64,000 bases of DNA from positions 3,247 to 67,246 of the IMG/VR virus record IMGVR_UViG_3300009101_000006. One strand, written 5' to 3'. The notes beneath the pieces are model-generated. The model had not been told where the DNA came from. It did not search any database and saw only the letters and a list, made by a program, of their open reading frames with translations. Shown here piece after piece: positions 21,756 to 38,137 of this stretch (its first letter is position 1; each line of letters starts with the position of its first letter). The stretch comes from a virus. Taxonomy: Duplodnaviria > Caudoviricetes. Made by a program: the position numbers and the translations under genes.

Positions 21756-21998
21756 CTACGGTAGGTAGCGCAGGGGCTGCGCCAGTGACTGCTGGGAATC
21801 CGAAAATTCGACAACTTCCATGAGTTCGATGGAAGCATTTCCAAGATTGATTCCGTATCTCGTATACACGTGGGCACTAACTAACAAGTAGTTCTTGTTT
21901 CCTATCCGAGTTATCTGTTGATTCTTTGTCTGTTCGACGAGCGCGTCGAATAGATCCTTGTCGGTCGTCTGTATCGATATCGTGCAGGGTTCACGCAT
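21756..21998 (-). CDS. Hypothetical protein
   Basis: 80-aa ORF overlapping the PolA stop. Confidence 0.55.
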   Translation of the reverse strand: MREPCTISIQTTDKDLFDALVEQTKNQQITRIGNKNYLLVSAHVYTRYGINLGNASIELMEVVEFSDSQQSLAQPLRYLP

Positions 21999-24090
21999 TT
22001 TTTCGCCCTTCCTTCCTTTTCCCCTTCAGTTTCTTCATCGCCTCGGCGAACGTGTGCTTCGCGTCGCCCCAGTTGATGCCCCACTCCGCGTCCACCTGGA
22101 ACGGAACGTCGCACGTATGCACCGTCCTCATGATCTCGACGATCTGTTCACCCTTCTTCTCGTCTAGCAGCGAGAATGACAGTTCGTCGTGCATCTGCAG
22201 GACGGGAATCGCGACGTTCTCGCCGCACTCGACCATCGCCATCTTCATCTGTCGCGCGGCGCTGCCCTGGATGCGTCGGTTCATCGCCTTATGCGTGAAC
22301 GCGCGCCGCAGTCGCTTGCGATGCCACGGATGCCCCTCGGTGCCCGCGCGCTGCTCGGCCTCCTCGCGGCTGCACGGTCCCATGTTCCAGCCCTCCTCGC
22401 GACCGCGTTTCCACTCGCCCCGATCGAGCCACGAGGCCTCCCACTTGTCGAAGTGGCACCGCGCACCGTCGATCAGCTTGATGAATCCGCGCGTGTCGCC
22501 CAGCTTGGCGCACAGCTTGCCGAGCTCCTTCACGAATGGAAGCTCCTCATCGTACGTTCCCATGATGGCGCCCGCCTCCTCGACGGACTTGCTGATCATG
22601 GTCGCGAACTTTGGAATTCCCGCGCCGAACGCCTTCGCAAAGTTGCAGTCCTTCGCGTGTCGCCGACCGAGGCCAGTCCAGTGCACCACCAGATTATGGA
22701 AGTCCGTACTCGGATCGTCCCTGTACAGCTTCGCGGCCGCGCGCGCCTTCGCGAGATTCTCGCGCGCCGCGTCCGCGACGATGAGACGATACTCCTGCTG
22801 CGAGTAGTCAGGCGAGAACCAGAGCTCTCCCTTCTCCGGAACGAACGACGTTCGATATTCCTTCGCGATGTCGGCCGTCAGATCCCAGCCGTCGAACTGC
22901 TCGCCGCGCGACGGCGCCTGCTGAAGGGGCGGGTCCACGATGGAGAACCTGTGACTGCGCGTGCCGCCCTGCTCGGTCTTCCACTGGTTGAACGAGGCGT
23001 GCACGCGGCCCCGATGCGCGAAGTCCAGGAGATAGCTCTGCACGAACTTGTCCGCGACCTCGTGGCACTGCTTCGCCTCGGCGATCAGCCTGGGAAGCCA
23101 GTGCTCCGCGCGCCGCATCCAGCTCTTGTTGAAGCTGGCCACGTCCTCGTCTCGATCCTCGTCGTACTCGGTCTGGTAGCTCTGGCCCTCCTGCTCGAAC
23201 ATCCTCAGGAGCCAGTGGCGCTGTCTTATTTCTTCGAGCGTGGCCGCCCGCCGCAGCCCCAGATGACTCCCCAGCAGATCCAGCGCCCGGTCCCCGCGCG
23301 CACGCAGATCGTCGCGCAGCCGCATGGCGTGGTCCACGTCGATGCGTATGCCGCGCTGTCTCATCGCGCGGATGATGGGGATCAGCCGCATCTCGTAGGC
23401 GTACGCACGCAGAAGTCCCTGCTCGTTGAGCTCCGGCCGCAGGCTGTCCATCAGATCCTGCGTGGACTCGGGATCCTGCTCACCGTACTCGGCGACGTAC
23501 CGAGCCGGGAACCGCCAGATGTTGGCCACCGCGTCCTTCGCCGGGACGCCGTAGATCACCGCGGTCTCTCGCAATTTCTGCGTGTCCTTCCCGGGCACCC
23601 CCCGCCACTCGCAGCATCCGTCGAGACTAAGGTCGTCGCGATTCTCGTCTATTAGAAACGCGGCGGCCGATGCGTCGTGGATCACGCGGGGCGGGGGGAC
23701 GTTCCACTCGGCGCCGATCCAACCTATGTCGTATCCGGCGTTGAAGAAGACGCAGCGCTTCGTCTGGAAGAGATGCTCGATCCAGCGGCCGACCTGCCCG
23801 TGGTCGTGGTTCTGAGTGTCCGGGTGGCGCACGGGCACGTACATCTTGTGACGCTCGCGCCCCTGTCGCCAGGACACGCCCACGCCGCAGACGTAGCCGT
23901 TCTTCGTCGCCCATCCGGGTCCGATCCTGGCCGCGAGTCCGCCGTCCTTGCACTCCGCGTCGATGCCGATCTCGTCGACGCCGGTCAGCGGCGGAAGCTC
24001 TGTTGGCGGCTTCCAGTCGCTGTCCGGCGTGATGAGAGGGATCTGGTTGGGATCCAGGTGCTGCTTGCGTGGTCGAATGATCTTTGTCAT
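21991..24090 (-). CDS. polA: DNA polymerase family A with 3'-5' exonuclease domain
   Basis: IGIDAE (ExoI), PDYSQQEYR (motif A), RRHAKDCNF (motif B), LQMHDELSF (motif C). Confidence 0.95.
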   Translation of the reverse strand: MTKIIRPRKQHLDPNQIPLITPDSDWKPPTELPPLTGVDEIGIDAECKDGGLAARIGPGWATKNGYVCGVGVSWRQGRERHKMYVPVRHPDTQNHDHGQVGRWIEHLFQTKRCVFFNAGYDIGWIGAEWNVPPPRVIHDASAAAFLIDENRDDLSLDGCCEWRGVPGKDTQKLRETAVIYGVPAKDAVANIWRFPARYVAEYGEQDPESTQDLMDSLRPELNEQGLLRAYAYEMRLIPIIRAMRQRGIRIDVDHAMRLRDDLRARGDRALDLLGSHLGLRRAATLEEIRQRHWLLRMFEQEGQSYQTEYDEDRDEDVASFNKSWMRRAEHWLPRLIAEAKQCHEVADKFVQSYLLDFAHRGRVHASFNQWKTEQGGTRSHRFSIVDPPLQQAPSRGEQFDGWDLTADIAKEYRTSFVPEKGELWFSPDYSQQEYRLIVADAARENLAKARAAAKLYRDDPSTDFHNLVVHWTGLGRRHAKDCNFAKAFGAGIPKFATMISKSVEEAGAIMGTYDEELPFVKELGKLCAKLGDTRGFIKLIDGARCHFDKWEASWLDRGEWKRGREEGWNMGPCSREEAEQRAGTEGHPWHRKRLRRAFTHKAMNRRIQGSAARQMKMAMVECGENVAIPVLQMHDELSFSLLDEKKGEQIVEIMRTVHTCDVPFQVDAEWGINWGDAKHTFAEAMKKLKGKRKEGRKNA

Positions 24091-24300: not shown

Positions 24301-24602
24301 CAGCTCACTCCGTCATCGAAGTTGTCGCACCCGCAGAATATGCACTTGTTCTCGGTCGAGCCGTTGGGAGCGCCGCGCACCCGAATGTGATACACGTGGT
24401 GCGCGATGCCCTCCGCGCGGCAGTGTTCGCTGGAGAAATGGAGATCCGACTCCTGGATTCCAGAGTTCTTGGCGCACTCGCTGCGAAATGTCAGCTCCGC
24501 GGTCTTCACGTCGGCGTCGGCCTGGGTCACGGCGCGACGTTTCTGCCAGATCCTCTCCTGGTGCTGGCGCATCTTGTAGATCATCTCGTAGTTGAGCGGC
24601 AT
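24300..24602 (-). CDS. Hypothetical protein
   Basis: MPLNYEMIY...KCIFCG; coupled. Confidence 0.55.
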   Translation of the reverse strand: MPLNYEMIYKMRQHQERIWQKRRAVTQADADVKTAELTFRSECAKNSGIQESDLHFSSEHCRAEGIAHHVYHIRVRGAPNGSTENKCIFCGCDNFDDGVS

Positions 24603-25720
24603 CACGTTTCGCTCCACTTGGAGTAGTTGGCAGAGAGAACGAACTTGGTCTCGCCCTCGACCCATTCGTACATCGACTTCTGCCACTCCGGCAGTGTGTC
24701 GTGGTGGACAGCGTTGACCTCGCGCTGGAGACACGGGAAAAAGTCTCGGAACTTCTCGGGAACGTCCGCGATCTTTATGACCCACGACTTCAAGTCCTTC
24801 CCGATCAGATACGAGGTGCGCAGCGCGCGCGGCAGAACGTAGGAGTCCACGAAGGGATCGAGGACATAGACATTTGGCGCGCGTAGAGTCCAGAACACCG
24901 CGACGTAGTCGTCCTCGATGTGGTTCTTACGGAACCACTCCGCGGAGACGACGTGTGGTGGACTGTGGACGATCTCCTCTTCGACTGAAGTTCCGTTTGA
25001 CGCGACACCTTCTTCTGGGGTCTGATTCTGGGGGATCATCGAGGCGTGTGTCGTCATCGCCTCCCTCATCGCGCCGCGCTGCCCAGCGTCCACGAAGCGC
25101 TCGCCCTCGGACGAGAAGCGCGGCACCCGGCGCTCTTGCGCCGAGGACTCGTTCCAGTGCTGCTCGCTGAACGGCACGGCGGGCGCGCGCTCGACGACGG
25201 GCTGCGGTTCTATCTGACCTCGCACTGCGAGTCGCGGCACCGCCACCACGCCCCGCGCCATCATCTCGGCCTCGACGAGCATCAGGTAGCGTCGCAGGTC
25301 GCGCACCTCGGCGAGCACGGTGCCGTCGCTGCCGTCCGGGTTCTCCCTGATCCGGGCGAAGATGTTCTCGGACAGGTAGCAGTCGCGCAGGTATTTGAAC
25401 AGATCGTACATCGCCTCGCGCACGCCTGGGAATGCCACGCGCAGATCAGAGCGCGCGGCACCACCTGTCTTCTCATACCTTCCCTCGGCGATTGCCTTCA
25501 GGGAGTCGTCTACGTTCTTCAGATTGAAAACTTCCGGCGTATCGGGCTTCCGCATGAACTCCAGCAGCCTGTCGATCTTCCGCCGCAGCATGAACCACGC
25601 GCTGCGGCCGCCGCTGCGCTTCCAGCTACCGCCGTAGCTGCGGTCCTTCTCGTCGACGTAGCGAACGTCCTCGTCGGCCACGATGCGGATGAAGTCCAGG
25701 TGTCTCATGTCGTGTGTCAC
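24602..25720 (-). CDS. Nmad1/DUF1599-like nucleotide-modification-associated protein with C-terminal extension
   Basis: EKDRSYGGSWKR...RRKIDRL...DLRRYLMLVEA pattern; inside the modification cluster. Confidence 0.7.
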   Translation of the reverse strand: MTHDMRHLDFIRIVADEDVRYVDEKDRSYGGSWKRSGGRSAWFMLRRKIDRLLEFMRKPDTPEVFNLKNVDDSLKAIAEGRYEKTGGAARSDLRVAFPGVREAMYDLFKYLRDCYLSENIFARIRENPDGSDGTVLAEVRDLRRYLMLVEAEMMARGVVAVPRLAVRGQIEPQPVVERAPAVPFSEQHWNESSAQERRVPRFSSEGERFVDAGQRGAMREAMTTHASMIPQNQTPEEGVASNGTSVEEEIVHSPPHVVSAEWFRKNHIEDDYVAVFWTLRAPNVYVLDPFVDSYVLPRALRTSYLIGKDLKSWVIKIADVPEKFRDFFPCLQREVNAVHHDTLPEWQKSMYEWVEGETKFVLSANYSKWSET

Positions 25721-25723
25721 GTG

Positions 25724-25927
25724 CTACTTCTCCAATTGCTTGAGCAGTTCGTCCGTCTCGTCGACGCGCTCCATGTACGCGTCGTACATCTCCACGTTCT
25801 GGCCGCACGTGCGGGCAATCATGTAGAACGCCGTTCGCTGATTGCGAAGTATCTGCTCGATCATCATGAGCTGAAGTGCTCCGTCGTTCAGTTTGAACTT
25901 GATCGGTGGTTTCGATGTCTTCGCCAT
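25724..25927 (-). CDS. Small hypothetical protein
   Basis: GGGAGG RBS, coupled. Confidence 0.55.
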   Translation of the reverse strand: MAKTSKPPIKFKLNDGALQLMMIEQILRNQRTAFYMIARTCGQNVEMYDAYMERVDETDELLKQLEK

Positions 25928-26481
25928 CAGACTCCCTCCCACTTGGTTCTCGTGTTCACGTAGCTCATGATCGCCGGCCGCAGCTCGGGGCTCCTGGACG
26001 CTGCGACCGGGTCGAGCTCCTCGAGTCGCTTGCTGGCGGCCAGGATGCATCGCGCTGCGATCACCCGGCCGTAGCGATTGCCCATGTTCATCTCCCGGAG
26101 TCCGTACTCCCACATCTCGATGAACTCGACGATCTTGAAGACGCTCTCCTCGAACTCGGTGAGCACCTGATCCTTCGGAAGACCGAAGACACGACGCATG
26201 TCGTCACGAACCACGCGCTCAGCCATGTCGTGCGCCGCCTTCATGCCGAAGATACGCTGCTTGAACGGGTACTGCACGTCGCCCGCCATCTCGCCGATGT
26301 CGTGCGTGACGGCGTGCACCAGCATTCTGCGGGGGCAGTCCGGCCACACGGTGAGCAGAATGCGCATGATCTGCGCACTGTGCTCGCCGACGGACTGCCG
26401 TCGATGCACTGGCCACGAGTGATAACGCGTCAGCTCGAGGCCGGCTCTCGGATCCTCCGAGACGTTGAGATCACTGCTCAC
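25927..26481 (-). CDS. HD-domain nucleotidase (YfbR-like)
   Basis: QSVGEHS...HAVTHDIGE...GDV motifs. Confidence 0.85.
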   Translation of the reverse strand: MSSDLNVSEDPRAGLELTRYHSWPVHRRQSVGEHSAQIMRILLTVWPDCPRRMLVHAVTHDIGEMAGDVQYPFKQRIFGMKAAHDMAERVVRDDMRRVFGLPKDQVLTEFEESVFKIVEFIEMWEYGLREMNMGNRYGRVIAARCILAASKRLEELDPVAASRSPELRPAIMSYVNTRTKWEGV

Positions 26482-27548
26482 TTCGCGTATCTCCTGCCGA
26501 GCCACGCGACGCACGCCTCGCGCCAGTCCGGTGCCTGGATCTGGAGAGCCTGTGTAATCGCCTCCTCGCGCTCGCCGCGTCTGTGATGCGCGTGAGCCAG
26601 CGCCGCAGTGCACGCCACGTCGGAGAACCACGCGTTCGAGAAGTCCGGGATCAGAGACGCGAAGGCATTGTCGTGCCACGTCATGAACACCCGGAGATCG
26701 TCGTCCCACGCGTCCCAGGCATCGCCGATCGGAGTGGAATCCGGAATCGGTAGCAGACGCTGGTACTCCGCCACGAGATCCTCGGGACTCCCGAGACGAT
26801 CGAGAGCGCCGACGTAGGCGTGGAAGTTGTTCGAGAACTGATACATCTTGCCGACGCCGACTCCGATGCGGCCGGCGAGATATTCCTGGAGCACGCTGAA
26901 GTGAACGGCGTTGGCGCCGTACGCGCCCCAGATCATGTCGTTGCTGCGACAGCAGACGGTCAGATCGAGAACAAGACCACGACATTCAGTCCCATCGTGC
27001 TCCATCTGGAATTCTCCGTCGCCGCGCACGCGAAGATAGACGTGCGTGTTGCACGGCCGATCCTTCCAGTTGCCGGTCAGATCAGCCCGGTAGATCTCGG
27101 GCTCCTGCGTCGGCAGCGAGAAGGGCCCCACGTCCCACATCTGTATCACGCACTGACGATCCTGAGGATTGCGCCGGAGCTTCTCGACCACGACGCGAAG
27201 TTGATCGATGCCCAGCCCGCCGCGCCATCGCTTGCCGTAAGCGCCGTGGATCACGCCGCCACGCTCCGCGAAGCGCGATCCGAAGTCTCGGACGTAGACG
27301 TCAAGAAACGCGGAGTCGTCGCGACCTGCGAGCATCCACAGACTCTCCATCAGGTGGAAGAACGGATTGGCGTCGCGCGTCGGCGACATGAGGACGCGTC
27401 GCGTCGGATTCTCGTAGACCGACACGACCGGGAACGGCGCGACGATCACGTCGCCCGCCCGGCTGGATTCGCGGTGACCGATCTCGGCCAGCATGATCGC
27501 TCCGAGCGACAGCATCTCGTTGACGTCGTATCCTTCGATGACAAACAT
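26478..27548 (-). CDS. Thymidylate-synthase-family dUMP hydroxymethylase (putative)
   Basis: NPFFHLMESLWMLAGRDD, GAYGKRW, DRPCN catalytic Cys, CRSND..WGAYGAN (Asn at the dUMP-specificity position), NNFHAY. Confidence 0.85.
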   Translation of the reverse strand: MFVIEGYDVNEMLSLGAIMLAEIGHRESSRAGDVIVAPFPVVSVYENPTRRVLMSPTRDANPFFHLMESLWMLAGRDDSAFLDVYVRDFGSRFAERGGVIHGAYGKRWRGGLGIDQLRVVVEKLRRNPQDRQCVIQMWDVGPFSLPTQEPEIYRADLTGNWKDRPCNTHVYLRVRGDGEFQMEHDGTECRGLVLDLTVCCRSNDMIWGAYGANAVHFSVLQEYLAGRIGVGVGKMYQFSNNFHAYVGALDRLGSPEDLVAEYQRLLPIPDSTPIGDAWDAWDDDLRVFMTWHDNAFASLIPDFSNAWFSDVACTAALAHAHHRRGEREEAITQALQIQAPDWREACVAWLGRRYAK

Positions 27549-27551
27549 GAG

Positions 27552-27929
27552 CTAGACTCCCTTCTTCTGAAGCTTTTTGACGACTTCCTTGAGCATGAAC
27601 ATATGCTCCCGTGTCTCCGGCGTGATCTCACCGAGCACGGCGACCAACTGATCGTACTCCCCGATCAACTCGCTCTCCATGCCGGTGACAACTCTGACGA
27701 ACTCGTTCCTGGCCTCCGGAGATCCCGGATCGATGACCGTGCCACCGATAGATCCCTGAACGATCAGCGCCAGGATGACCGTCTTCAGATACTCGTCACC
27801 GGCGTCGGCGCACAGACCGCAGGAGGATGCCGAATCGACGAACGCGCTTCTGACCATCTGCGCAGCGACGCACAGACGAGCACTCAATTCTCCATTCTGG
27901 CCGCACGAACAATCAGCCCTCTTGAACAT
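27552..27929 (-). CDS. Hypothetical protein
   Basis: GGAGG RBS; coupled within cluster. Confidence 0.6.
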   Translation of the reverse strand: MFKRADCSCGQNGELSARLCVAAQMVRSAFVDSASSCGLCADAGDEYLKTVILALIVQGSIGGTVIDPGSPEARNEFVRVVTGMESELIGEYDQLVAVLGEITPETREHMFMLKEVVKKLQKKGV

Positions 27930-28386
27930 TCTTGCCTCCGTTGAATTGGACAAAGAGTTCCTCGAGAAGAAGCCCCGCGAGCTCGCGGTGCCTCGAACTA
28001 TTGTACCACATATTTCTACCACTCGGATGCGGGAGTTGTCGCCACGTGGTCCCACCGATTATCTGCGGCTCGATCAGCAGTCGGGGGTGGCCGAAGCACC
28101 GACGCACGTCCTCGCCGAGCAGCACGACGACACGGTCAACGCCGAACAGCTCGGCGCTTATGCGCGCGGCCTCGTCGCGTCCCAGGGCACTGCTCCAGCT
28201 CCGTCCCGTGACGAGATTGCGCCGCTCGAACGTCTCGAGGTACGCGCGGCGCGAGACATGCGGCAGCCGACCCTGTAGCATCTTCCAGAGTCGGTGACCC
28301 GTGCAGCCCTCCGGATAAGGATAGAGCTGATGTCCGTCCTCGCTCGAGATCGGATTGTTCATGCCGATCAGGATGGGCTTCTTCAC
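27913..28386 (-). CDS. Uracil-DNA-glycosylase-superfamily protein
   Basis: ILIGMNNP...TGHRL...VVVLLG...LPHPSGRN motifs. Confidence 0.75.
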   Translation of the reverse strand: MKKPILIGMNNPISSEDGHQLYPYPEGCTGHRLWKMLQGRLPHVSRRAYLETFERRNLVTGRSWSSALGRDEAARISAELFGVDRVVVLLGEDVRRCFGHPRLLIEPQIIGGTTWRQLPHPSGRNMWYNSSRHRELAGLLLEELFVQFNGGKNVQEG

Positions 28387-29090
28387 GCTGCGTCTCCATC
28401 CACGATTCTGGCCCCGGACGCCGCGATGCTCTCTGGCGTTCCCCAGTCCAGGAACGAACTCGCGTGCGCGCACTTGAACACAGCGCTCATCTTGGCGAGC
28501 GCCGCCGACAGATACGGCTCGTTGTGATTGCGACACACGAACTGAAGCGCGTCGCGGAGCTGACGAGACGAGCGGAATGCCCACGCGCCGACCATGGCGT
28601 GGGCGCTGATCGCGCGCTTCTCCGCGAAGCGCGTGGGGAACGGGAAGCTGTTCACGTAGGAGTATGCCTCGGACTTGGACTCCGTCGTGAGAATTCCGAC
28701 GTCGGCACTATTGTAGGAGACCTGTTCGCACGTGCGCACAATGTCTTCGAGGCAGATCACCATGTCGCAGTTCATGACGAGCACCGGAACGTCAGCGAAT
28801 CGTTCCGGTGTCGTGGCGTCCAGGGCGCACAGTACGGCGTGCGCCTGCCCCCGCGAGTTGTGAACGACGATCGAGCAGTGCGGGGCGTCGGGTCCGACGG
28901 AGTGTGGATGAGCTGCGATCACGACCGGACCGACCGCGCTGAAAGGGATCTCGTCGAGAACCCAGTCCAGCATCTTCTTTTTCTCACCGTTGAACTCGAT
29001 CACGAGATCTGGTTTCGGGGTCGCGTAGCCCGCGTCGCGGAATCGCCGGCTGGTTCCGGCGGCTGGGACGATCAGTCTGAACTTGTTCAC
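28383..29090 (-). CDS. Sugar/alcohol-phosphate nucleotidyltransferase (NTP_transferase fold)
   Basis: LIVPAAGTSRRFRDAGYATPKP, VMNCD, FLDWGTPE. Confidence 0.85.
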   Translation of the reverse strand: MNKFRLIVPAAGTSRRFRDAGYATPKPDLVIEFNGEKKKMLDWVLDEIPFSAVGPVVIAAHPHSVGPDAPHCSIVVHNSRGQAHAVLCALDATTPERFADVPVLVMNCDMVICLEDIVRTCEQVSYNSADVGILTTESKSEAYSYVNSFPFPTRFAEKRAISAHAMVGAWAFRSSRQLRDALQFVCRNHNEPYLSAALAKMSAVFKCAHASSFLDWGTPESIAASGARIVDGDAA

Positions 29091-29749
29091 GACAAGTGCT
29101 CCCTCAGTTGGTCTCGGATGTGCGACGCCCAGACTCGCTCTTCCAGAGCGTTCGGCGACGCCGCGATCCTGGACATCATCACGAAGACCCAGAAAGCAAT
29201 TCTCGGGATCGTGTTGTTGCCGACGTACAGGAAGCTCGGCTCGTGCCAGACCACGTGCTCCGTCTGGTAGCCCGTCATGATCTCCCAGCCCATCATGGAC
29301 TGGACGATGCGCGCCTGATCGACGACAGCGATCTGCGGAACGCGCTCCGGGTAGACCGGGTCGCCGAACACCATCGTCCGACCGTGTTCGGTCTGCCGGA
29401 GCATGGTGTTGCAGAGCGTGAGGTCGCCGTGCACGGCGCACGGGCGCTCTCCGATCCACGTCCAGTCCGGCGCTTCGATCTCGAGAGTATCCCGAAGACA
29501 GGAGCGCCATTCTGCCGTTGACACAGACACTGCCGGACGATGATTCCAGAACGAGGCCGCGGCGATGTACGCGGCCTCGGACGCCCACTCCGGATCCGTA
29601 GGACACGGCAGCAGCAGCTCCATCGCGAAGCCGTCATCCCATCGCGCCAGAATCTCCGGAACGCGATCACTCGCGACGGCGGCGAGACGATCGAGATACT
29701 CGAGCTGACCCGCGCACTTCGGCCCCTGCTTGATCACCGCCAGATCCAT
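29087..29749 (-). CDS. APH/choline-kinase-like phosphotransferase (start may be further upstream)
   Basis: VIKQ, HGDLTLCNTML (Brenner motif), VFGDP. Confidence 0.8.
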   Translation of the reverse strand: MDLAVIKQGPKCAGQLEYLDRLAAVASDRVPEILARWDDGFAMELLLPCPTDPEWASEAAYIAAASFWNHRPAVSVSTAEWRSCLRDTLEIEAPDWTWIGERPCAVHGDLTLCNTMLRQTEHGRTMVFGDPVYPERVPQIAVVDQARIVQSMMGWEIMTGYQTEHVVWHEPSFLYVGNNTIPRIAFWVFVMMSRIAASPNALEERVWASHIRDQLREHLS

Positions 29750-30533
29750 CCTGCTCCCGCTTCTGCCCTTCTCGAAGGGCGGCCTCCCATCGAATGACCA
29801 CTTCGTTGCGGGGATGGCCCTTGTAATCTTTGCGGACCACGCGGACGAGTCCCGGATGAAGGCACGAAAGGAGTTCGGCGTCAGCGTCTGAAGACGCGGT
29901 GCTCCGCTGTCCTGTGCAGCCGCCGCGAGCGGCGTATTCGTTTGACTGCTCGGCGACGAAGGTGTGACAAACGGCATTGGGATAGCCCTTCCTGAGAAGC
30001 TGAAGAACGTAGTCCATGTCCTCGCGGGTCTCGATCCTGCCGCTGAGGTCGCACTCGCGACGCACGGTCGGCAGGTGATAGCCCAGAACGTACTGCATCC
30101 GCTTGGCGTGCTGCCAGCCGGGCTCCTTCGCGTTGTTGAACAGACGCGAGCCGAATCCCGCGTGTGCGTACTGTTGTGGCGCTGGTCCGATCATGTCGGC
30201 GAGCTGCCGAAACCAGTAGACCACCTCGTCTGCCGTCGGCGTGCGCAGGCGCTTCGGGTCCTCCTCGCGCTTGACGAAGAACCGGAGGTCGTCGTCCAGC
30301 ATCACGATGCGATCAGCGCCCCGCCAATCGCGCATGATCCGCGCGCGCTTGGCCGCGATCGTCATCGCATCGTCCTGCTGGACGACGACGCGCGCCCACG
30401 GGCGCATGTCCTCGTGACGATGCGCCTCGTTGGACGGACAGACGATGTAGATATCCTTGCGAAGCTCTCTCGGAAGCCTGTCGCACGTGAGAGCGAGGTC
30501 CCACCGACCCCGCGTCGGAATGATGATGTCCAC
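29667..30533 (-). CDS. GT-A-fold glycosyltransferase (TAGT/GREB1-like), paralogue 1
   Basis: IIIPTRGR, IVMLDDDLRF, EDMDY, GGC motifs. Confidence 0.8.
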   Translation of the reverse strand: MDIIIPTRGRWDLALTCDRLPRELRKDIYIVCPSNEAHRHEDMRPWARVVVQQDDAMTIAAKRARIMRDWRGADRIVMLDDDLRFFVKREEDPKRLRTPTADEVVYWFRQLADMIGPAPQQYAHAGFGSRLFNNAKEPGWQHAKRMQYVLGYHLPTVRRECDLSGRIETREDMDYVLQLLRKGYPNAVCHTFVAEQSNEYAARGGCTGQRSTASSDADAELLSCLHPGLVRVVRKDYKGHPRNEVVIRWEAALREGQKREQDGSGGDQAGAEVRGSARVSRSSRRRRE

Positions 30534-30544
30534 TGAAGTTCTCC

Positions 30545-31099
30545 CTAGAAGTCCTGGATCTGCTGCGCGTCGCCCTCGAACAGACGCCGAACGGTGGCGG
30601 CCGACTGCTCCCGGTCACCGACGTGCACATTGTAGCCCAGACGTCGGTACTCCGCAATCTCGCGAATTGCCTTACGGTGCGTGACACCGACGTAGTCCAC
30701 GGACCTGGACTGCCCCTTGGCCCGGAACCCCGCTTCGCACTCGGACAACGGCAGATCGACGAACACCAGATGCAGCTCCACGTCCCTCCTGTCGTGGAGA
30801 GCCCTCAGGTGGATCTTATCGTCGCGGTTGTTCATGCCCTCGAACAGAATGTCGTTCCCCATGTCCAGATATTTCCTAATCCAGGCGTGCGCCGCCCGCA
30901 GATCAAGCATCGTGTCGAGCCCGCCGTTCTGGATCTCGTAGTGTCCGGGGACGAACAGACCCTTGCCGGCAATATAACCCAGCGGCTTCCGCCGATGTAG
31001 AACATGAATCGCCTCGCACGAACCGCGATCGTTCATGTAGCTGCGAACGAGAGTGGATTTCCCGGCGCCGCACGCGCCACGCACGTTGACGACGATCAT
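30545..31099 (-). CDS. P-loop nucleotide kinase
   Basis: RGACGAGKST Walker A, GHY..QNGGLDT, ILFEG. Confidence 0.85.
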   Translation of the reverse strand: MIVVNVRGACGAGKSTLVRSYMNDRGSCEAIHVLHRRKPLGYIAGKGLFVPGHYEIQNGGLDTMLDLRAAHAWIRKYLDMGNDILFEGMNNRDDKIHLRALHDRRDVELHLVFVDLPLSECEAGFRAKGQSRSVDYVGVTHRKAIREIAEYRRLGYNVHVGDREQSAATVRRLFEGDAQQIQDF

Positions 31100-31851
31100 C
31101 GATAAGCCCTCGCCCAGTTAACACGAGTCGACCATCCAGAGATCGAGCTCTTGTTGTCCGTGTTGATGCTGACCGTGTCCGGCCACAAGCGTGCAAACTT
31201 CTCGAACTCCGCGCGCTCGAACTCCGGCGTTCTCCAAGTCGAGCACCCCCCGCTCGCGTTGTACTTGCTTCCCTTTGTCCAGTCGGTGAGGACGATCGGC
31301 TTGTACCCCGAGCGCGCGAGCTGGAGATGGAGGTCGTGTTCCTCGTTGATCGCGAGCCGAAAGGCGGGGGAATACTTCTCGCGCGCGAACAGGTAGTGTC
31401 CGAGGTCGTAGGCGAGCACCTGATTGTAGCGTCCACCGACCTTGTGCCCGCGCGGCTGGTGTTGACACATGAACTCGTCGGCGATGCCCGCGTGCGGCGT
31501 CGTGGCGAGCGCGATGCCGAGCGTGCGGATCATGAGAGAAATGTCATCGGGCTTCGCGGACACGAATCTGTCGTCCGTGGCATAGCGACGTCGGAACCTG
31601 AGGTCGTCGTCCAGCATCACGATCTTGTGGCCTCGCCACTTGTTGATGATCCACTGGCGCTTCTGGCCGATGTGACTGCACTCGACGCCGTGGATCTTCA
31701 CGTCGAATCTTGAGCGATGTTCCAGCACGGCCTTCGCGTAGTCCTGCGCCTCGGTCGTCGGCACGACGATGTTCACGGAGGTGCCGTGCTCGATGCTGTC
31801 GAGCGTTCGGACTGCGTTCGCGCGTCCGCGACTCGGTATCACGATGATCAT
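31096..31851 (-). CDS. GT-A-fold glycosyltransferase (TAGT/GREB1-like), paralogue 2
   Basis: IVIPSRGR, IVMLDDDLRF, EEHD, GGCS motifs. Confidence 0.8.
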   Translation of the reverse strand: MIIVIPSRGRANAVRTLDSIEHGTSVNIVVPTTEAQDYAKAVLEHRSRFDVKIHGVECSHIGQKRQWIINKWRGHKIVMLDDDLRFRRRYATDDRFVSAKPDDISLMIRTLGIALATTPHAGIADEFMCQHQPRGHKVGGRYNQVLAYDLGHYLFAREKYSPAFRLAINEEHDLHLQLARSGYKPIVLTDWTKGSKYNASGGCSTWRTPEFERAEFEKFARLWPDTVSINTDNKSSISGWSTRVNWARAYR

Positions 31852-32135
31852 GCGTTGTCCTTTCTTAGCGTGAGAACGACCACGTCTCCAATCTGGAGTC
31901 CGACCGGCTTGCGCGAGATGATTTTCTGCGAATCGGCCTTCTTCCCGTGTTCGGGGTTGAAGAACGGCGCCGTCACGCGCATGCTCGCCGGCCACCCCTC
32001 GAACGTCGCCCACCATCCCTCGGATTCGGTCTCGAAGATCGCGTCCTGGCCGTAGCCCGACACGTACCGGCGCCGGACCTTCTCCTCCAGGGACACGATC
32101 TTGGCTCGAAAAGATGCTTCGAATATGGTTGTCAC
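31848..32135 (-). CDS. Hypothetical protein
   Basis: GTGA overlap with upstream stop; 95 aa. Confidence 0.6.
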   Translation of the reverse strand: MTTIFEASFRAKIVSLEEKVRRRYVSGYGQDAIFETESEGWWATFEGWPASMRVTAPFFNPEHGKKADSQKIISRKPVGLQIGDVVVLTLRKDNA

Positions 32136-33070
32136 TGGAATCTCCCCTTCATCCTGCCCTGCCCGAGCCTGACGCGCTCGTACTTGTCGAACTCGCAGAG
32201 AGTATGCTCCACGTCGCGCAGCTCCCAGAGCGGCCACTCTCGGGGCCACATTCTAGCACCGCGCGAGAGCACCAGCAACTCCCGCATGCCCCCGATCAGC
32301 TCCTCGCGGGACATGGTCTTGTCCTTGTAGTCCTTTCCGAGAACGCGGTTGAGTCCGCGCCGGGCGCCAGGACCGGGATTTGCCCAAGTCATGATGTCTG
32401 GAGCACGTTCGAGCAGCCGCGTGTGACGAAGATCCGTTACGATCTCGTAGCTGTGAAACCTTCCAAGATAGTCGTGACACGACAACCACTCCCAGACATA
32501 TTCCAGTGGCTGGGAAGTCTGTGCGAGTGTCACGGCGAATTGTCGCCACTTGACTTCGTTGTCGTTGTTGACAAATTTGTTCAGAATCTCGAGCACACCG
32601 TTCAGCTTCGTGTACCCCGGTGGACTGCTGATAATATATGCGCCGGTCACATATGGACCGGAGCCGCAGTGCGCGAGGATCGCTCTTCGCAGATGCGCCA
32701 CCTTGCCCGTGTGCAAGAACAGATCGAACGCCGTGACATAGTCGTAGTCACTCCGTGTACGGAAGACAGAGCGCATACCGCCCATGCCTACCATGTCCGT
32801 CTGACAGAAGATCGCCTCGCCGGTGCTGATGCGGTTGAACATGCGGAACACGACCGTGGCGAGAAGCACCTCCGGCCGGTTCCGCAGTGGATCGCGGACG
32901 TGCTCGCGGAACCACTTCGTGGTCCGGTCGTCCTCGCGGAACACGTTGCAGAATCTTCCGGTCTGGAGGATCTTGTCCCGTGTCCACGGACGAGGGAGTC
33001 CAGCCGACCGGTTCAGGTGGATCTGGTATCGCTCTCTCGCGTACTCGAAGAACCGATCGGCTCGTTTCAT
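32132..33070 (-). CDS. 5-hydroxymethyluracil DNA kinase-like protein (aGPT-Pplase1 / HMUDK helical family)
   Basis: ERYQI...PWTRDKIL...RFCNVFREDDRTT...FRMFN, F.SYEIVTDL, PGPGARRGL, EHTLCEFDKY. Confidence 0.85.
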   Translation of the reverse strand: MKRADRFFEYARERYQIHLNRSAGLPRPWTRDKILQTGRFCNVFREDDRTTKWFREHVRDPLRNRPEVLLATVVFRMFNRISTGEAIFCQTDMVGMGGMRSVFRTRSDYDYVTAFDLFLHTGKVAHLRRAILAHCGSGPYVTGAYIISSPPGYTKLNGVLEILNKFVNNDNEVKWRQFAVTLAQTSQPLEYVWEWLSCHDYLGRFHSYEIVTDLRHTRLLERAPDIMTWANPGPGARRGLNRVLGKDYKDKTMSREELIGGMRELLVLSRGARMWPREWPLWELRDVEHTLCEFDKYERVRLGQGRMKGRFQ

Positions 33071-36671: not shown

Positions 36672-36913
36672 CTGTCAATCCCCGGCTTCATGAAGTCAGG
36701 CCACGGGCGCTCGCCGCGGAGACACTCGAAGTATTCACGATCCGCTGCTTCGACGAGACGATGCCCACCCCACACCTCGCGGATGCGAAGAATGATGAAT
36801 ATCATGTGCTCCACGCCCTCCTTCATGTCACCCATGTTCTCGAGAAGATCAACACCTCGATACGTCTTCTTCTCGTCGTCCGTCAGACAGTGCTGATAAC
36901 TCCCCGCCATCAC
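36668..36913 (-). CDS. Hypothetical protein
   Basis: Coupled ORF. Confidence 0.55.
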   Translation of the reverse strand: MMAGSYQHCLTDDEKKTYRGVDLLENMGDMKEGVEHMIFIILRIREVWGGHRLVEAADREYFECLRGERPWPDFMKPGIDR

Positions 36914-37446
36914 TCAATCTCCAATATCTTCTTGCGACTGAGCTCGGGGCAGTCGCACTCCCCGCACGGAATTATCGCACGGGCGCAGGACTCCCGCAAG
37001 GTCATGCCAGTGTTGATGATCACCTGCACCGCGCGGTCGTCCCACTGCTCGATCATGTCGGCGTCCTTGAAGCACTGCACGGGCAGGCGCGGAAGTCCGT
37101 GTCGCTCGCAGTGGTCGCGAACGGCCTCCGCCATCATGTGATCAGAGAAGTTCATGCGCGTCACGCGGCACTTGCCAGTGAACTCGCGGCTGTAGATATT
37201 CTCGAAGTTGGCAGTTTCGTCGGCAGATGCCATCACGGGCAGTCCGACGCGCGCCGTCACGATCTTGACGAGAATCCCGGCCTCGTGCCACGCGAGCACG
37301 CGATCGATCATCGGCCTGATGGGCTCGCCGAACACGTTCCAGCCGACCCAGTGGGTATATGTGAACATCGTGCCGTCCAGGTCCACGCCGATCCAGCCGC
37401 CGCTCCGCGCGAGTCTCAGGTATCTCTCGGGTATCTCGATCTTCAT
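36910..37446 (-). CDS. HAD-superfamily phosphatase
   Basis: IGVDLDGT motif I, IVTAR motif II, K...WDDRAVQV. Confidence 0.8.
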   Translation of the reverse strand: MKIEIPERYLRLARSGGWIGVDLDGTMFTYTHWVGWNVFGEPIRPMIDRVLAWHEAGILVKIVTARVGLPVMASADETANFENIYSREFTGKCRVTRMNFSDHMMAEAVRDHCERHGLPRLPVQCFKDADMIEQWDDRAVQVIINTGMTLRESCARAIIPCGECDCPELSRKKILEIE

Positions 37447-37679
37447 GACTTTTCCTTTCTTATGAGAACAGCGCCATCTGGGAGCTTGTTCTCGTAGTAG
37501 ATCCAGTTGTGCACGCCGCTCGCAGACGGACACTCGTCGTCGCCGTAGCAGTACAGACAATCCCCGCACTCGTCGCAGAAATCTTCGCCGCAGACTGGCG
37601 CCGCCCTTTCCACGTGTCCGATGATCTCAGTTCCATGAGAATCGTACACCGGGACAAGATGCGGCGCCAAGCTCACCAC
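37443..37679 (-). CDS. Small Cys-rich protein
   Basis: CGEDFCDECGDCLYC. Confidence 0.55.
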   Translation of the reverse strand: MVSLAPHLVPVYDSHGTEIIGHVERAAPVCGEDFCDECGDCLYCYGDDECPSASGVHNWIYYENKLPDGAVLIRKEKS

Positions 37680-38137
37680 GACGCTCGCTCCCGGATGTCG
37701 TCCTGCGTCTGGAACAGAACGGGATGGGCCGGACGCCGCCAGTCCAGCGCCAGCGGGATCAGCCAGTGAAGATTACCGACGACGGGAATGCCGCTCAATC
37801 GAGTTCCGACGTCGTGGAACATGAGGTGCTCGCCGGCGTCGTTGTAGATCGGGATCGAGTGCACACGTCCGCGCCAGTCGATGCGCGACCAGTAGAAGTG
37901 AACCACGTAGTCCCGGCCCATCTCGGTCGCGAAGTGTCGCCACTCCTCCTGTTTCGTCTCGACGCCGACCTCCTCGCGAAATTCGCGGACCATGGCGTGC
38001 ACGGGTGTCTCGTGGTCGTCCGCCTTGCCGCCGACACCGTTCCACAATCCGTGTTGCCACTCGGGCGTCTCCTTGCAGACGAGCAGCACATTCTCGTCGT
38101 GGAAGGCGAATCCAGCCACCATTGTCTTCATAGCCAT
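37673..38137 (-). CDS. Nudix hydrolase
   Basis: GGKADDHETPVHAMVREFREEVG Nudix box. Confidence 0.9.
   Translation of the reverse strand: MAMKTMVAGFAFHDENVLLVCKETPEWQHGLWNGVGGKADDHETPVHAMVREFREEVGVETKQEEWRHFATEMGRDYVVHFYWSRIDWRGRVHSIPIYNDAGEHLMFHDVGTRLSGIPVVGNLHWLIPLALDWRRPAHPVLFQTQDDIRERASW

Follow-up and report, generated by a model that had tools for sequence, protein, structure and literature searches.

A minus-strand gene array in the IMG/VR virus record IMGVR_UViG_3300009101_000006 interleaves a homologue of the 5-hydroxymethyl-2'-deoxyuridine (5-hmdU) DNA kinase (5-HMUDK) with two glycosyltransferases (GTs), next to a putative sugar-donor module. To our knowledge, in all characterised thymidine hypermodification pathways the 5-hydroxymethyluracil (5-hmU) DNA kinase supplies the leaving group that a transferase of amino acids or amines then displaces. 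The kinase lineage described here lacks that usual partner: a survey of kinases without an amino acid:DNA transferase (AADT), as proposed in an earlier note on this DNA made from the letters alone, placed a glycosyltransferase of one of two unrelated folds near the kinase in nine of the nine loci of the lineage, and an AADT in none. This pairing is the strongest support for a kinase that would serve glycosylation and not amino-acid transfer. We regard it as an evenly balanced proposition that a single pathway adds both the kinase's phosphate and sugars from a donor made by the phage, and the likely product of the operon, as predicted from its genes, is a glycosylated, probably phosphorylated, 5-hmdU.

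The stretch analysed (the window) comprises 64,000 nucleotides, positions 3247-67246 of a 67,246-bp record that CheckV rates complete, and has a G+C content of ~62%. Judged by its gene content, the array is most likely a thymidine hypermodification operon of a PhiJL001/PaMx11-like siphophage. It runs co-directionally from ~42025 down to the DNA polymerase gene at 21991-24090, past the limits of 24602-33070 drawn in the earlier note, and all of the open reading frames (ORFs) listed there are present on the minus strand, at or near the coordinates reported for them. Translational coupling is borne out by 4-nt GTGA/ATGA stop-start overlaps at the GT1/kinase, APH-like/nucleotidyltransferase, nucleotidyltransferase/UDG-like and TS/HD junctions (TS, thymidylate synthase; UDG, uracil-DNA glycosylase), the remaining junctions within those limits being 1-nt overlaps or 3-13-nt gaps, and no credible terminator was found inside the array. 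Megablast of the region against GenBank phages returned zero matches; in protein comparisons the phage kin are PhiJL001, PaMx11 and M6, which their records assign to Mesyanzhinovviridae. The genes that bear on the argument are the following (NDP, nucleoside diphosphate; TAGT, TET-associated glycosyltransferase):

36910-37446, minus strand: small HAD-like phosphatase with a DLDGT motif (PF12710 at E 6e-4, below cut-off)
32132-33070, minus strand: clade-1 aGPT-Pplase, here Pplase1 (PF18723 'HMUDK_hel', formerly aGPT-Pplase1; whole-length match of 151.6 bits against a cut-off of 25)
31096-31851, minus strand: GT1, divergent TAGT-family GT-A glycosyltransferase (PF20691 6.9e-10; phrog_842 2.5e-28)
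30545-31099, minus strand: P-loop kinase of the 5-HMUDK lineage (AAA_33, phrog_800)
29667-30533, minus strand: GT2, TAGT-family GT-A glycosyltransferase (PF20691 2.7e-19; phrog_842 1.1e-38)
29087-29749, minus strand: small APH/choline-kinase-like kinase, presumed sugar or sugar-phosphate kinase (HGDxxxxN...D motifs)
28383-29090, minus strand: nucleotidyltransferase of the MobA/GlmU-like NDP-sugar pyrophosphorylase type (PF12804, NTP_transf_3, 5e-9)
26478-27548, minus strand: TS-family enzyme, predicted dUMP hydroxymethylase (PF00303, Thymidylat_synt, 5.3e-16, 59 bits; phrog_5131 5.4e-85)
25927-26481, minus strand: HD-domain hydrolase of the YfbR-like 5'-deoxynucleotidase/dNTPase type (phrog_6047 4.5e-18; phrog_7076)
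21991-24090, minus strand: family A DNA polymerase (PolA) of the PhiJL001 type, the array's downstream end (28-30% identity to PolA of PhiJL001 and PaMx11; PF00476 recorded on the homologue in contig L006)

The kinase and the neighbouring glycosyltransferases

The P-loop kinase called in the earlier note is confirmed as the ORF at 30545-31099, a homologue of the validated 5-HMUDK PaMx11 gp49 (30% identity over the full length, E 1.3e-18, with one PHROG shared by the two) and of M6 gp54 (E 1.3e-5). It keeps every residue invariant in 31 relatives (Walker A, GHYE, GG.D, EG and Cys121) and is nested in the kinase tree among Pplase-associated kinases, and 5-hmdU DNA phosphorylation is its predicted activity. 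RefSeq names both PaMx11 gp49 (NC_028770, 39220-39627, L093) and M6 gp54 'terminase small subunit'.

The survey behind the pairing covered 80 IMG/VR loci around Pplase1 homologues, scanned with profiles built in this analysis. Five window-type kinases form one clade (SH-aLRT 99), whose sister group (99) consists of the four kinases of loci L012, L014, L016 and L021. These four loci have no AADT, and just upstream of the kinase they encode a conserved 330-aa protein that resembles T4 beta-glucosyltransferase, a GT-B enzyme, by language-model (Atlas) features (0.97) and by predicted structure (TM 0.74); the kinase adjoins the GT-B gene or stands one radical-SAM gene away, three of the four loci (L012, L014 and L016) carrying a radical SAM/SPASM gene. 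The cluster lies at:

L012, 11280-13835; L014, 11138-13727; L016, 9042-12045; L021, 11303-12834: Pplase1, GT-B and 5-HMUDK-lineage kinase

Because one clade has TAGT partners and its sister T4 beta-glucosyltransferase-like ones, the kinase lineage is paired with glycosyltransferases of two folds, and we read the sister-group loci as another, uncharacterised, kinase-plus-sugar thymidine pathway. Across the survey Pplase1 occurs nearly always with a TS-like gene and an AADT is always accompanied by a kinase, and kinases with neither AADT nor TAGT also occur. Two loci, L066 (10920-14006) and L082 (8754-11837), combine a kinase with a myo-inositol-1-phosphate synthase and a divergent AADT that falls just short of the PF18724 cut-off (23-25 bits), L082 having a dual-specificity phosphatase as well, which suggests an inositol-derived thymidine adduct; their kinases fall elsewhere on the tree, away from the window-type and sister clades.

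Both GT-A proteins of the earlier note hold up, GT2 scoring 70.4 bits and GT1 39.6 bits against PF20691 (cut-off 27.5), which is Pfam's TET-associated glycosyltransferase family, and the GT-A catalytic motifs RGR, DDD and ExD are invariant in both paralogue groups. Phage GT-A DNA glycosyltransferases are reported to be structurally closest to the base J glucosyltransferase (preprint 10.1101/2023.12.21.572611). The genomic context of the GTs is one of DNA enzymes, with a TS-like gene, Pplase1 and the DNA-base kinase adjoining them in five loci; four metagenomic contigs, reached via their APH-like proteins (46-59% identical to that of the window), keep the order Pplase1, TAGT, kinase, TAGT, APH-like kinase, nucleotidyltransferase, UDG-like protein, small ORF, TS and HD. 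In the TAGT tree GT1 is a long-branch clade of five sequences (SH-aLRT 100) private to window-type phages. GT2 is highly conserved (identity up to 78% among the five loci), and its nearest neighbour outside its own group is the single TAGT of L017 (SH-aLRT 93, below the star threshold), with phiRSL1 ORF234, a TAGT beside a nucleotidyltransferase, more loosely near it on a long branch, both outer groupings having moderate support; we consider GT2 the likely primary 5-hmU glycosyltransferase. GT2 also has an Arg-rich C-terminal tail, seen in L006 and L007 too, and the last 83 bases of the GT2 gene (29667-29749) are shared with the beginning of the APH-like gene; the tail may serve to bind DNA, or else translation of the APH-like protein may begin further downstream.

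For the putative donor-synthesis genes the evidence is uneven. The nucleotidyltransferase matches PF12804 at 37 bits (cut-off 27) and has an N-terminal GxGTSRR motif, in agreement with the earlier note; it also gives weak matches to NCBIfam GlmU N-terminal models, and its cyanophage homologues are annotated as NDP-sugar pyrophosphorylases. The APH-like kinase proposed there has the expected signature, its HGDxxxxN and D motifs being invariant across a nine-protein family, but it lacks a domain-level match: Pfam finds none in the ORF, PF01636 was not found in the genome, and the fold model is weak. A more distant homologue, in L017, reaches PF01636 at E 0.0066. In the PDB, neither sequence nor profile searches with the window protein gave a useful match, and an exact-word search of IMG/VR and tblastn against phages, AfhE-type enzymes included, gave none; PDB searches of the same kinds with Pplase1, the nucleotidyltransferase, the P-loop kinase, the UDG-like and HAD-like proteins and the L012-type GT likewise returned no useful match. 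The HAD-like phosphatase, with homologues in phiRSL1 and Rhizobium phages, is a possible donor-synthesis partner.

Locus L017 (9866-18596 of a 77-kb IMG/VR contig) encodes a pair of clade-1 Pplase paralogues; a TAGT, an APH-like kinase and a nucleotidyltransferase follow immediately downstream of the second, and no P-loop kinase of the 5-HMUDK type was found within 10 kb. Since the TAGT nearest to GT2 thus stands beside APH-like and nucleotidyltransferase genes without such a kinase, the donor module appears separable, and our reading of the operon is one of two modules: a portable module of GT2 with donor synthesis (APH-like kinase and nucleotidyltransferase), and a lineage-specific module of GT1 with the P-loop kinase. 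Published precedents for the former are AfhE, a sugar-phosphate kinase plus UDP-arabinose pyrophosphorylase in RB69-like phages (PMC13326640), and a HAD/APH enzyme and a cytidylyltransferase that feed a heptosyltransferase to give heptosyl-5-hydroxymethylcytosine (5hmC) (10.1101/2023.12.21.572611). The fused AfhE-like architecture was not found in the window, where kinase and then transferase are two separate genes. What the earlier note thought outstanding, a base kinase combined with donor genes, therefore needs narrowing: the pairing of the HMUDK lineage with GTs without an AADT does stand out, whereas an APH-like kinase, a nucleotidyltransferase and a DNA glycosyltransferase as such are already published for cytosine (PMC13326640; 10.1101/2023.12.21.572611).

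The clade-1 Pplase and the search for an amino acid:DNA transferase

The ORF at 32132-33070 had been labelled both an aGPT-Pplase1 and a 5-hmU DNA kinase. The first label is right, but the second is not: the protein is a paralogue of the AADT with a helix-hairpin-helix, glycosylase-like fold, 37-47% identical to M6 gp55 and PaMx11 gp50, and the kinase homologue is the P-loop ORF at 30545-31099. The 5-hmdU DNA kinases are P-loop proteins, namely M6 gp54, PaMx11 gp49 and, in SP10, the N-terminal portion of gp186 (Lee et al., PMC8989533), and the aGPT-Pplases are helix-hairpin-helix, glycosylase-like proteins whose clade 2 is the AADT and whose clade-1 member in M6, gp55, was dispensable for amino-acid transfer in vitro (PMC8989533).

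An AlphaFold2 model of Pplase1 (pLDDT 93.8) has PaMx11 gp46/PUGT (8z2n) as its best PDB match (Z 11.0, rmsd 4.2, 224 residues), tied with QNG1, a queuine salvage enzyme (7ugk), with helix-hairpin-helix glycosylases lower (Z ~9). The conserved motif VEHTLCEFDKYER contains Cys292. This residue is shared by 90% or more of a set of 65 diverse homologues, and structural-match offsets put it opposite the catalytic Cys247 of gp46; VEHTLCEFDK in Pplase1 parallels VETILCKWK in gp46, whose cysteine is kept in M6 gp51 and whose sequence context aligns with the catalytic cysteine reported for a related Pplase2. Alignments of clade 1 with clade 2 by hhalign brought the cysteine motifs together at a non-significant score. 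The relation to AADTs is settled because the fold search matched gp46, profile-profile comparison alone being non-significant.

PF18723 is a large family, with 3843 cluster representatives matching at E <= 0.001. In SP10 (NC_019487, 113318-114175, L095) the domain lies in a 653-aa frame (gp186) and a search of the genome with PF18724 gave no match at E <= 1, which leaves the clade-1 domain as the sole candidate of Pplase type for the SP10 glutamate transferase. Since the clade-1 Pplase keeps the AADT fold and cysteine, and since SP10, a maker of glutamyl-thymidine, has no PF18724 match, it may be a working enzyme on C5-substituted uracil, and by analogy it could be the enzyme that uses the kinase product.

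The earlier note saw no AADT, pyridoxal-phosphate (PLP) or radical-SAM gene in the window. This extends to the complete genome, in which PF18724 (AADT, aGPT-Pplase2) and PF18746 (clade 3) have no match at E <= 10, tblastn with PaMx11 gp46 and M6 gp51 reaches a best E of only 0.11, and PLP, radical SAM and FAD tailoring enzymes were not found by tblastn. The statement is thus sound for clades 2 and 3, but to say that there is no AADT-type enzyme is an overstatement, the clade-1 Pplase having the AADT fold and cysteine motif. A divergent AADT hidden among the operon's hypothetical ORFs, which the earlier note had named as a case that would count against its proposal, was looked for and not found, none of them matching PF18724 at E <= 1. 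These absences are judged from the Pfam model and tblastn, a two-sequence AADT profile having missed the divergent AADTs of L066 and L082.

A proposed pathway and its alternatives

In the pathway that we propose, the TS-family enzyme would convert dUMP to 5-hmdUMP, the HD hydrolase would trim competing nucleotides (presumably by clearing thymidine or uridine nucleotides) and the phage PolA would then build 5-hmdU DNA, roles suggested by homology. The TS-like enzyme is 38-41% identical over its full length to PaMx11 gp51 and PhiJL001 gp24, and its translation shows the catalytic P-C-N motif; the Asn that the earlier note placed at the dUMP-specificity site is indeed there, the N of RSNDMIWGAYGAN aligning with the Asp of the cytosine-specific CMP hydroxymethylase MilA, which is also the best PDB sequence match (3e-11). 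The HD assignment is likewise upheld by phrog_6047, with weak Pfam matches (PF12917/PF13023) and homology to PaMx11 gp52. Module structure and the published precedents suggest that the APH-like kinase and the nucleotidyltransferase would make an NDP-sugar, whose sugar GT2, as a base-J-type TAGT, would move onto the hydroxymethyl group of 5-hmdU in DNA. Comparative genomics points to a P-loop kinase that works with the private GT1, not with an AADT, and the two would place a phosphate and a second sugar on the same adduct, the finished base carrying two sugars and one phosphate. The kinase might phosphorylate the first sugar (route A), the simpler reading on the side of the GTs, the relatives of which all have hydroxyls as acceptors. 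Alternatively, GT1 might glycosylate 5-phosphomethyl-dU (5-PmdU; route B), which is the simpler reading for the kinase; given its 30% identity to gp49 and its new GT partners, the kinase could have shifted its substrate to a sugar hydroxyl. The clade-1 Pplase would be a general enzyme of hmU-DNA phages that has kept the AADT fold and cysteine. The outcome would be a bulky, charged thymine replacement, which should block host nucleases.

Polyprenyl-phosphate GT-A enzymes use a phosphate acceptor. That GT1 (in the sister phages, the T4 beta-glucosyltransferase-like enzyme) would do the same with the phosphate of 5-phosphomethyl-dU, giving a sugar-1-phosphodiester on the base that GT2 would extend with the phage-made sugar, is an idea we hold to be doubtful; if true, it would mean a teichoic-acid-like linkage in the major groove, with the phosphorylated intermediate as a handle and not a leaving group. 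The earlier note's more general proposal, that (phospho-)hmU is decorated with a donor sugar, gains from the fact that the GTs and the kinase/nucleotidyltransferase pair occupy the slot that in PaMx11 and M6 holds the AADT and tailoring enzymes, but is weakened by the clade-1 Pplase, which may instead use the kinase product.

Several observations weigh against the proposed pathway, and we caution that every step past gene identification is inferred from sequence. A search of the whole genome with PF18748 (HMUDK_HMUD1) at E <= 10 gave no match, the window kinase included; this model gives the validated PaMx11 gp49 only 17 bits (cut-off 27) and M6 gp54 65.8 bits, and because a validated member falls below the model's own cut-off it under-calls the family, so that Pfam-based surveys will under-count 5-HMUDKs. 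The AlphaFold2 model of the APH-like protein is poor (pLDDT 57), the Foldseek matches listed being almost all kinase-like and weak (E 0.016-0.3), and the phosphatase is the only HAD-like gene, lies 7 kb upstream and has a sub-cut-off match. Clusters of TAGT, Pplase1 and TS without a kinase are common (PhiJL001, MW202897 and ~15 IMG/VR loci); hmU glycosylation therefore needs no kinase, and the kinase may serve another branch. Finally, the clade-1 Pplase keeps the AADT fold and cysteine and SP10 has this clade and no PF18724 match, and the kinase and Pplase1 could be a self-sufficient transferase pair.

These last points favour, as a tentative alternative, two separate branches, in which the kinase and Pplase1 would act as an SP10-like pair, the kinase making 5-phosphomethyl-dU and Cys292 of Pplase1 swapping the phosphate for a nucleophile (an amino acid, an amine or a hydride, the last giving thymine) at a subset of sites, while the TAGTs would glycosylate the remaining 5-hmdU independently from the phage-made NDP-sugar, phosphate and sugar never meeting on one adduct. 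This arrangement would fit the best match of the Pplase1 model to the 5-PmdU glycinyltransferase gp46, with Cys292 opposite Cys247 and conserved at 90% or more across the family, as well as the fusion of PF18723 to the kinase in SP10, where PF18724 has no match, and the neighbouring kinase and Pplase1 genes of M6 and PaMx11. It would also fit the virions of M6, ViI, SP10 and PhiW-14, which are without 5-hmdU, the remainder having been enzymatically converted to thymine (PMC8989533), and the kinase-less TAGT clusters, which show that GTs can act alone. However, M6 gp55 was not needed for amino-acid transfer in vitro (PMC8989533), the many loci with Pplase1 and TS and no detectable kinase argue that Pplase1 is not generally dependent on phosphorylation, and separate branches leave unexplained both the constant proximity of kinase and GT, with two folds of GT, and the private second GT.

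A change of acceptor, in which the TS homologue makes dTMP or another C5-substituted dUMP (for example of the 5-hydroxy type, as the RB69 enzymes do for cytosine), seems to us improbable. Phage TS homologues do make 5-hydroxy-dCMP with flavin (PMC13326640), and in the PDB the window enzyme has nothing closer in sequence than MilA; on the other side stand its full-length identity to the PaMx11 and PhiJL001 enzymes, the modifications of PaMx11 deriving from 5-hmdU (PMC8989533), its co-occurrence with a 5-HMUDK-lineage kinase and Pplase1, and the Asn, not Asp, at the base-specificity position. Least credible of all is a role away from DNA for the GTs, the APH-like kinase and the nucleotidyltransferase, in which their target would be a virion protein or, as in seroconversion, a polymer of the host surface, leaving only TS, HD, kinase and Pplase1 to act on DNA. 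Pathways for surface glycans do often contain GT-A enzymes and kinase/nucleotidyltransferase pairs, and a preprint gives TarP, a teichoic-acid GlcNAc transferase, as the closest solved structure to phage GT-A DNA glycosyltransferases (10.1101/2023.12.21.572611). Against this reading, the genes alternate with those of the DNA-base kinase and Pplase1 and are translationally coupled to them within a replication and nucleotide-metabolism array, the interleaved order is kept in the four other contigs, both GTs match the TET/TS-associated PF20691 and not surface-glycan families, and the translations of the six core proteins (Pplase1, GT1, kinase, GT2, APH-like kinase and nucleotidyltransferase) have no obvious signal or membrane segment.

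Remaining genes and comparison with known systems

Four further ORFs lie among or beside these genes:

31848-32132, minus strand: small conserved ORF of ~94 aa between Pplase1 and GT1 (38% match to an L012 ORF)
27913-28386, minus strand: UDG-superfamily protein (PF03167 E 0.0021; phrog_12275 7.9e-20; GMNNP and HPSGRN motifs)
27552-27929, minus strand: conserved 125-aa protein, with a similar-sized gene at the same place in L005
24602-25720, minus strand: 372-aa protein, called 'Nmad1-like' in the earlier note

The UDG-like assignment keeps its GMNNP and HPSGRN motifs, which presumably resemble those of SMUG-type glycosylases that excise 5-hmU, although its Pfam support is weak. Homologues occur in 30 of the 92 survey rows (window and reference loci counted), with the gene kept beside TS; one would not expect such a conserved protein in phages whose own DNA incorporates hmU. 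The Nmad1-like label has to be dropped: PF07659 was not found in the 372-aa protein, nor any Pfam, PHROG or NCBIfam match, the only lead being an Atlas score of 0.79 to clusters with DUF1599 in 10% of members. The 125-aa protein likewise has no match in these three databases, and the ~94-aa ORF, at whose position L006 and L007 have small genes, has none in Pfam. Upstream in the array, a NUDIX hydrolase gene (37673-38137) accompanies that of the HAD-like phosphatase and both are kept in related contigs; the two could have a role in donor or nucleotide-pool metabolism. A dCMP deaminase was considered as a pathway member and ruled out, since PF00383 was not found in the complete genome; PhiJL001 and PaMx11 have one after the polymerase gene.

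The clusters of PaMx11 (gp46-gp52) and M6 (gp51-gp59) share with the window a 5-HMUDK-lineage kinase, a clade-1 Pplase, a TS-like enzyme and an HD hydrolase upstream of PolA (Lee et al., PMC5889632, PMC8989533). They have, in addition, a clade-2 Pplase with PLP, radical SAM, FAD or acetyltransferase tailoring enzymes, whereas the window genome has two TAGTs, an APH-like kinase and a nucleotidyltransferase instead. SP10 gp186, from the alpha-glutamylthymidine phage, is like the window in having a kinase and a clade-1 Pplase without a PF18724 match; however, kinase and Pplase are fused there in a 653-aa frame with no TAGT or donor genes known alongside, whereas in the window they are separate genes with GT1 between them. 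The comparison also yields leads on the clade-1 Pplase, whose large family numbers clusters in the thousands and which in SP10 is the one Pplase type to be detected.

Among glycosylating systems, the base J glucosyltransferase and the phage TAGTs that act on 5hmC carry an R...DDD...EDY/F motif set which the RGR...DDD...ExD of GT1 and GT2 resembles, and sequential GTs that build di-glycosides are known there (PMC8256090; 10.1101/2023.12.21.572611). In those systems the acceptor comes from a methyltransferase and TET, whereas the predicted 5-hmU of the window would be made before replication by a TS homologue, and a DNA-base kinase is interleaved with the GTs. The AfhE/AfhF UDP-arabinose route (RB69, DLP3 and HY126) and the heptose route of 'contig 53', with its HAD/APH enzyme and cytidylyltransferase, also have an APH-like kinase and a pyrophosphorylase feeding a DNA glycosyltransferase (PMC13326640; 10.1101/2023.12.21.572611); compared with these routes, the window has separate genes in reverse order, a GT-A in place of a GT-B enzyme, and a thymine and not a cytosine analogue as its predicted target. 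The uncharacterised clusters of PhiJL001 (gp19-gp25) and phiRSL1 (ORF230-238) have a TS-like enzyme, a clade-1 Pplase and a TAGT in common with the window, and phiRSL1 has nucleotidyltransferases too, but unlike in the window a 5-HMUDK-lineage kinase was detected in neither; PhiJL001 encodes an Nmad5 protein and a single GT, and phiRSL1 an extra APS-kinase-like gene and a sulfotransferase. The base of SP-15, glucosyl-phosphoglucuronolactone-dihydroxypentyluracil (cited in PMC5889632), is the one described thymine replacement with both sugar and phosphate; its side chain is dihydroxypentyl, not hydroxymethyl, and the likeness is one of base chemistry, the SP-15 genes not being linked to this enzyme set.

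Our literature search found no report of a sugar-bearing 5-hmU as a natural phage base. If sugar and phosphate do share one base in the window genome, this would be a new natural DNA modification, of relevance to how phages evade restriction and CRISPR, to artefacts of nanopore and other sequencing in metagenomes, and to the enzymatic labelling of DNA. The parts are of known kinds, and the TS, Pplase1 and TAGT sets of PhiJL001 and phiRSL1 have been in GenBank for years without chemistry. What appears new, on comparison of these gene sets, is a retained 5-HMUDK-lineage kinase that is interleaved with GTs, has no AADT and is paired across its lineage with two GT folds, which suggests that phosphorylation of DNA bases has a second use not so far described.

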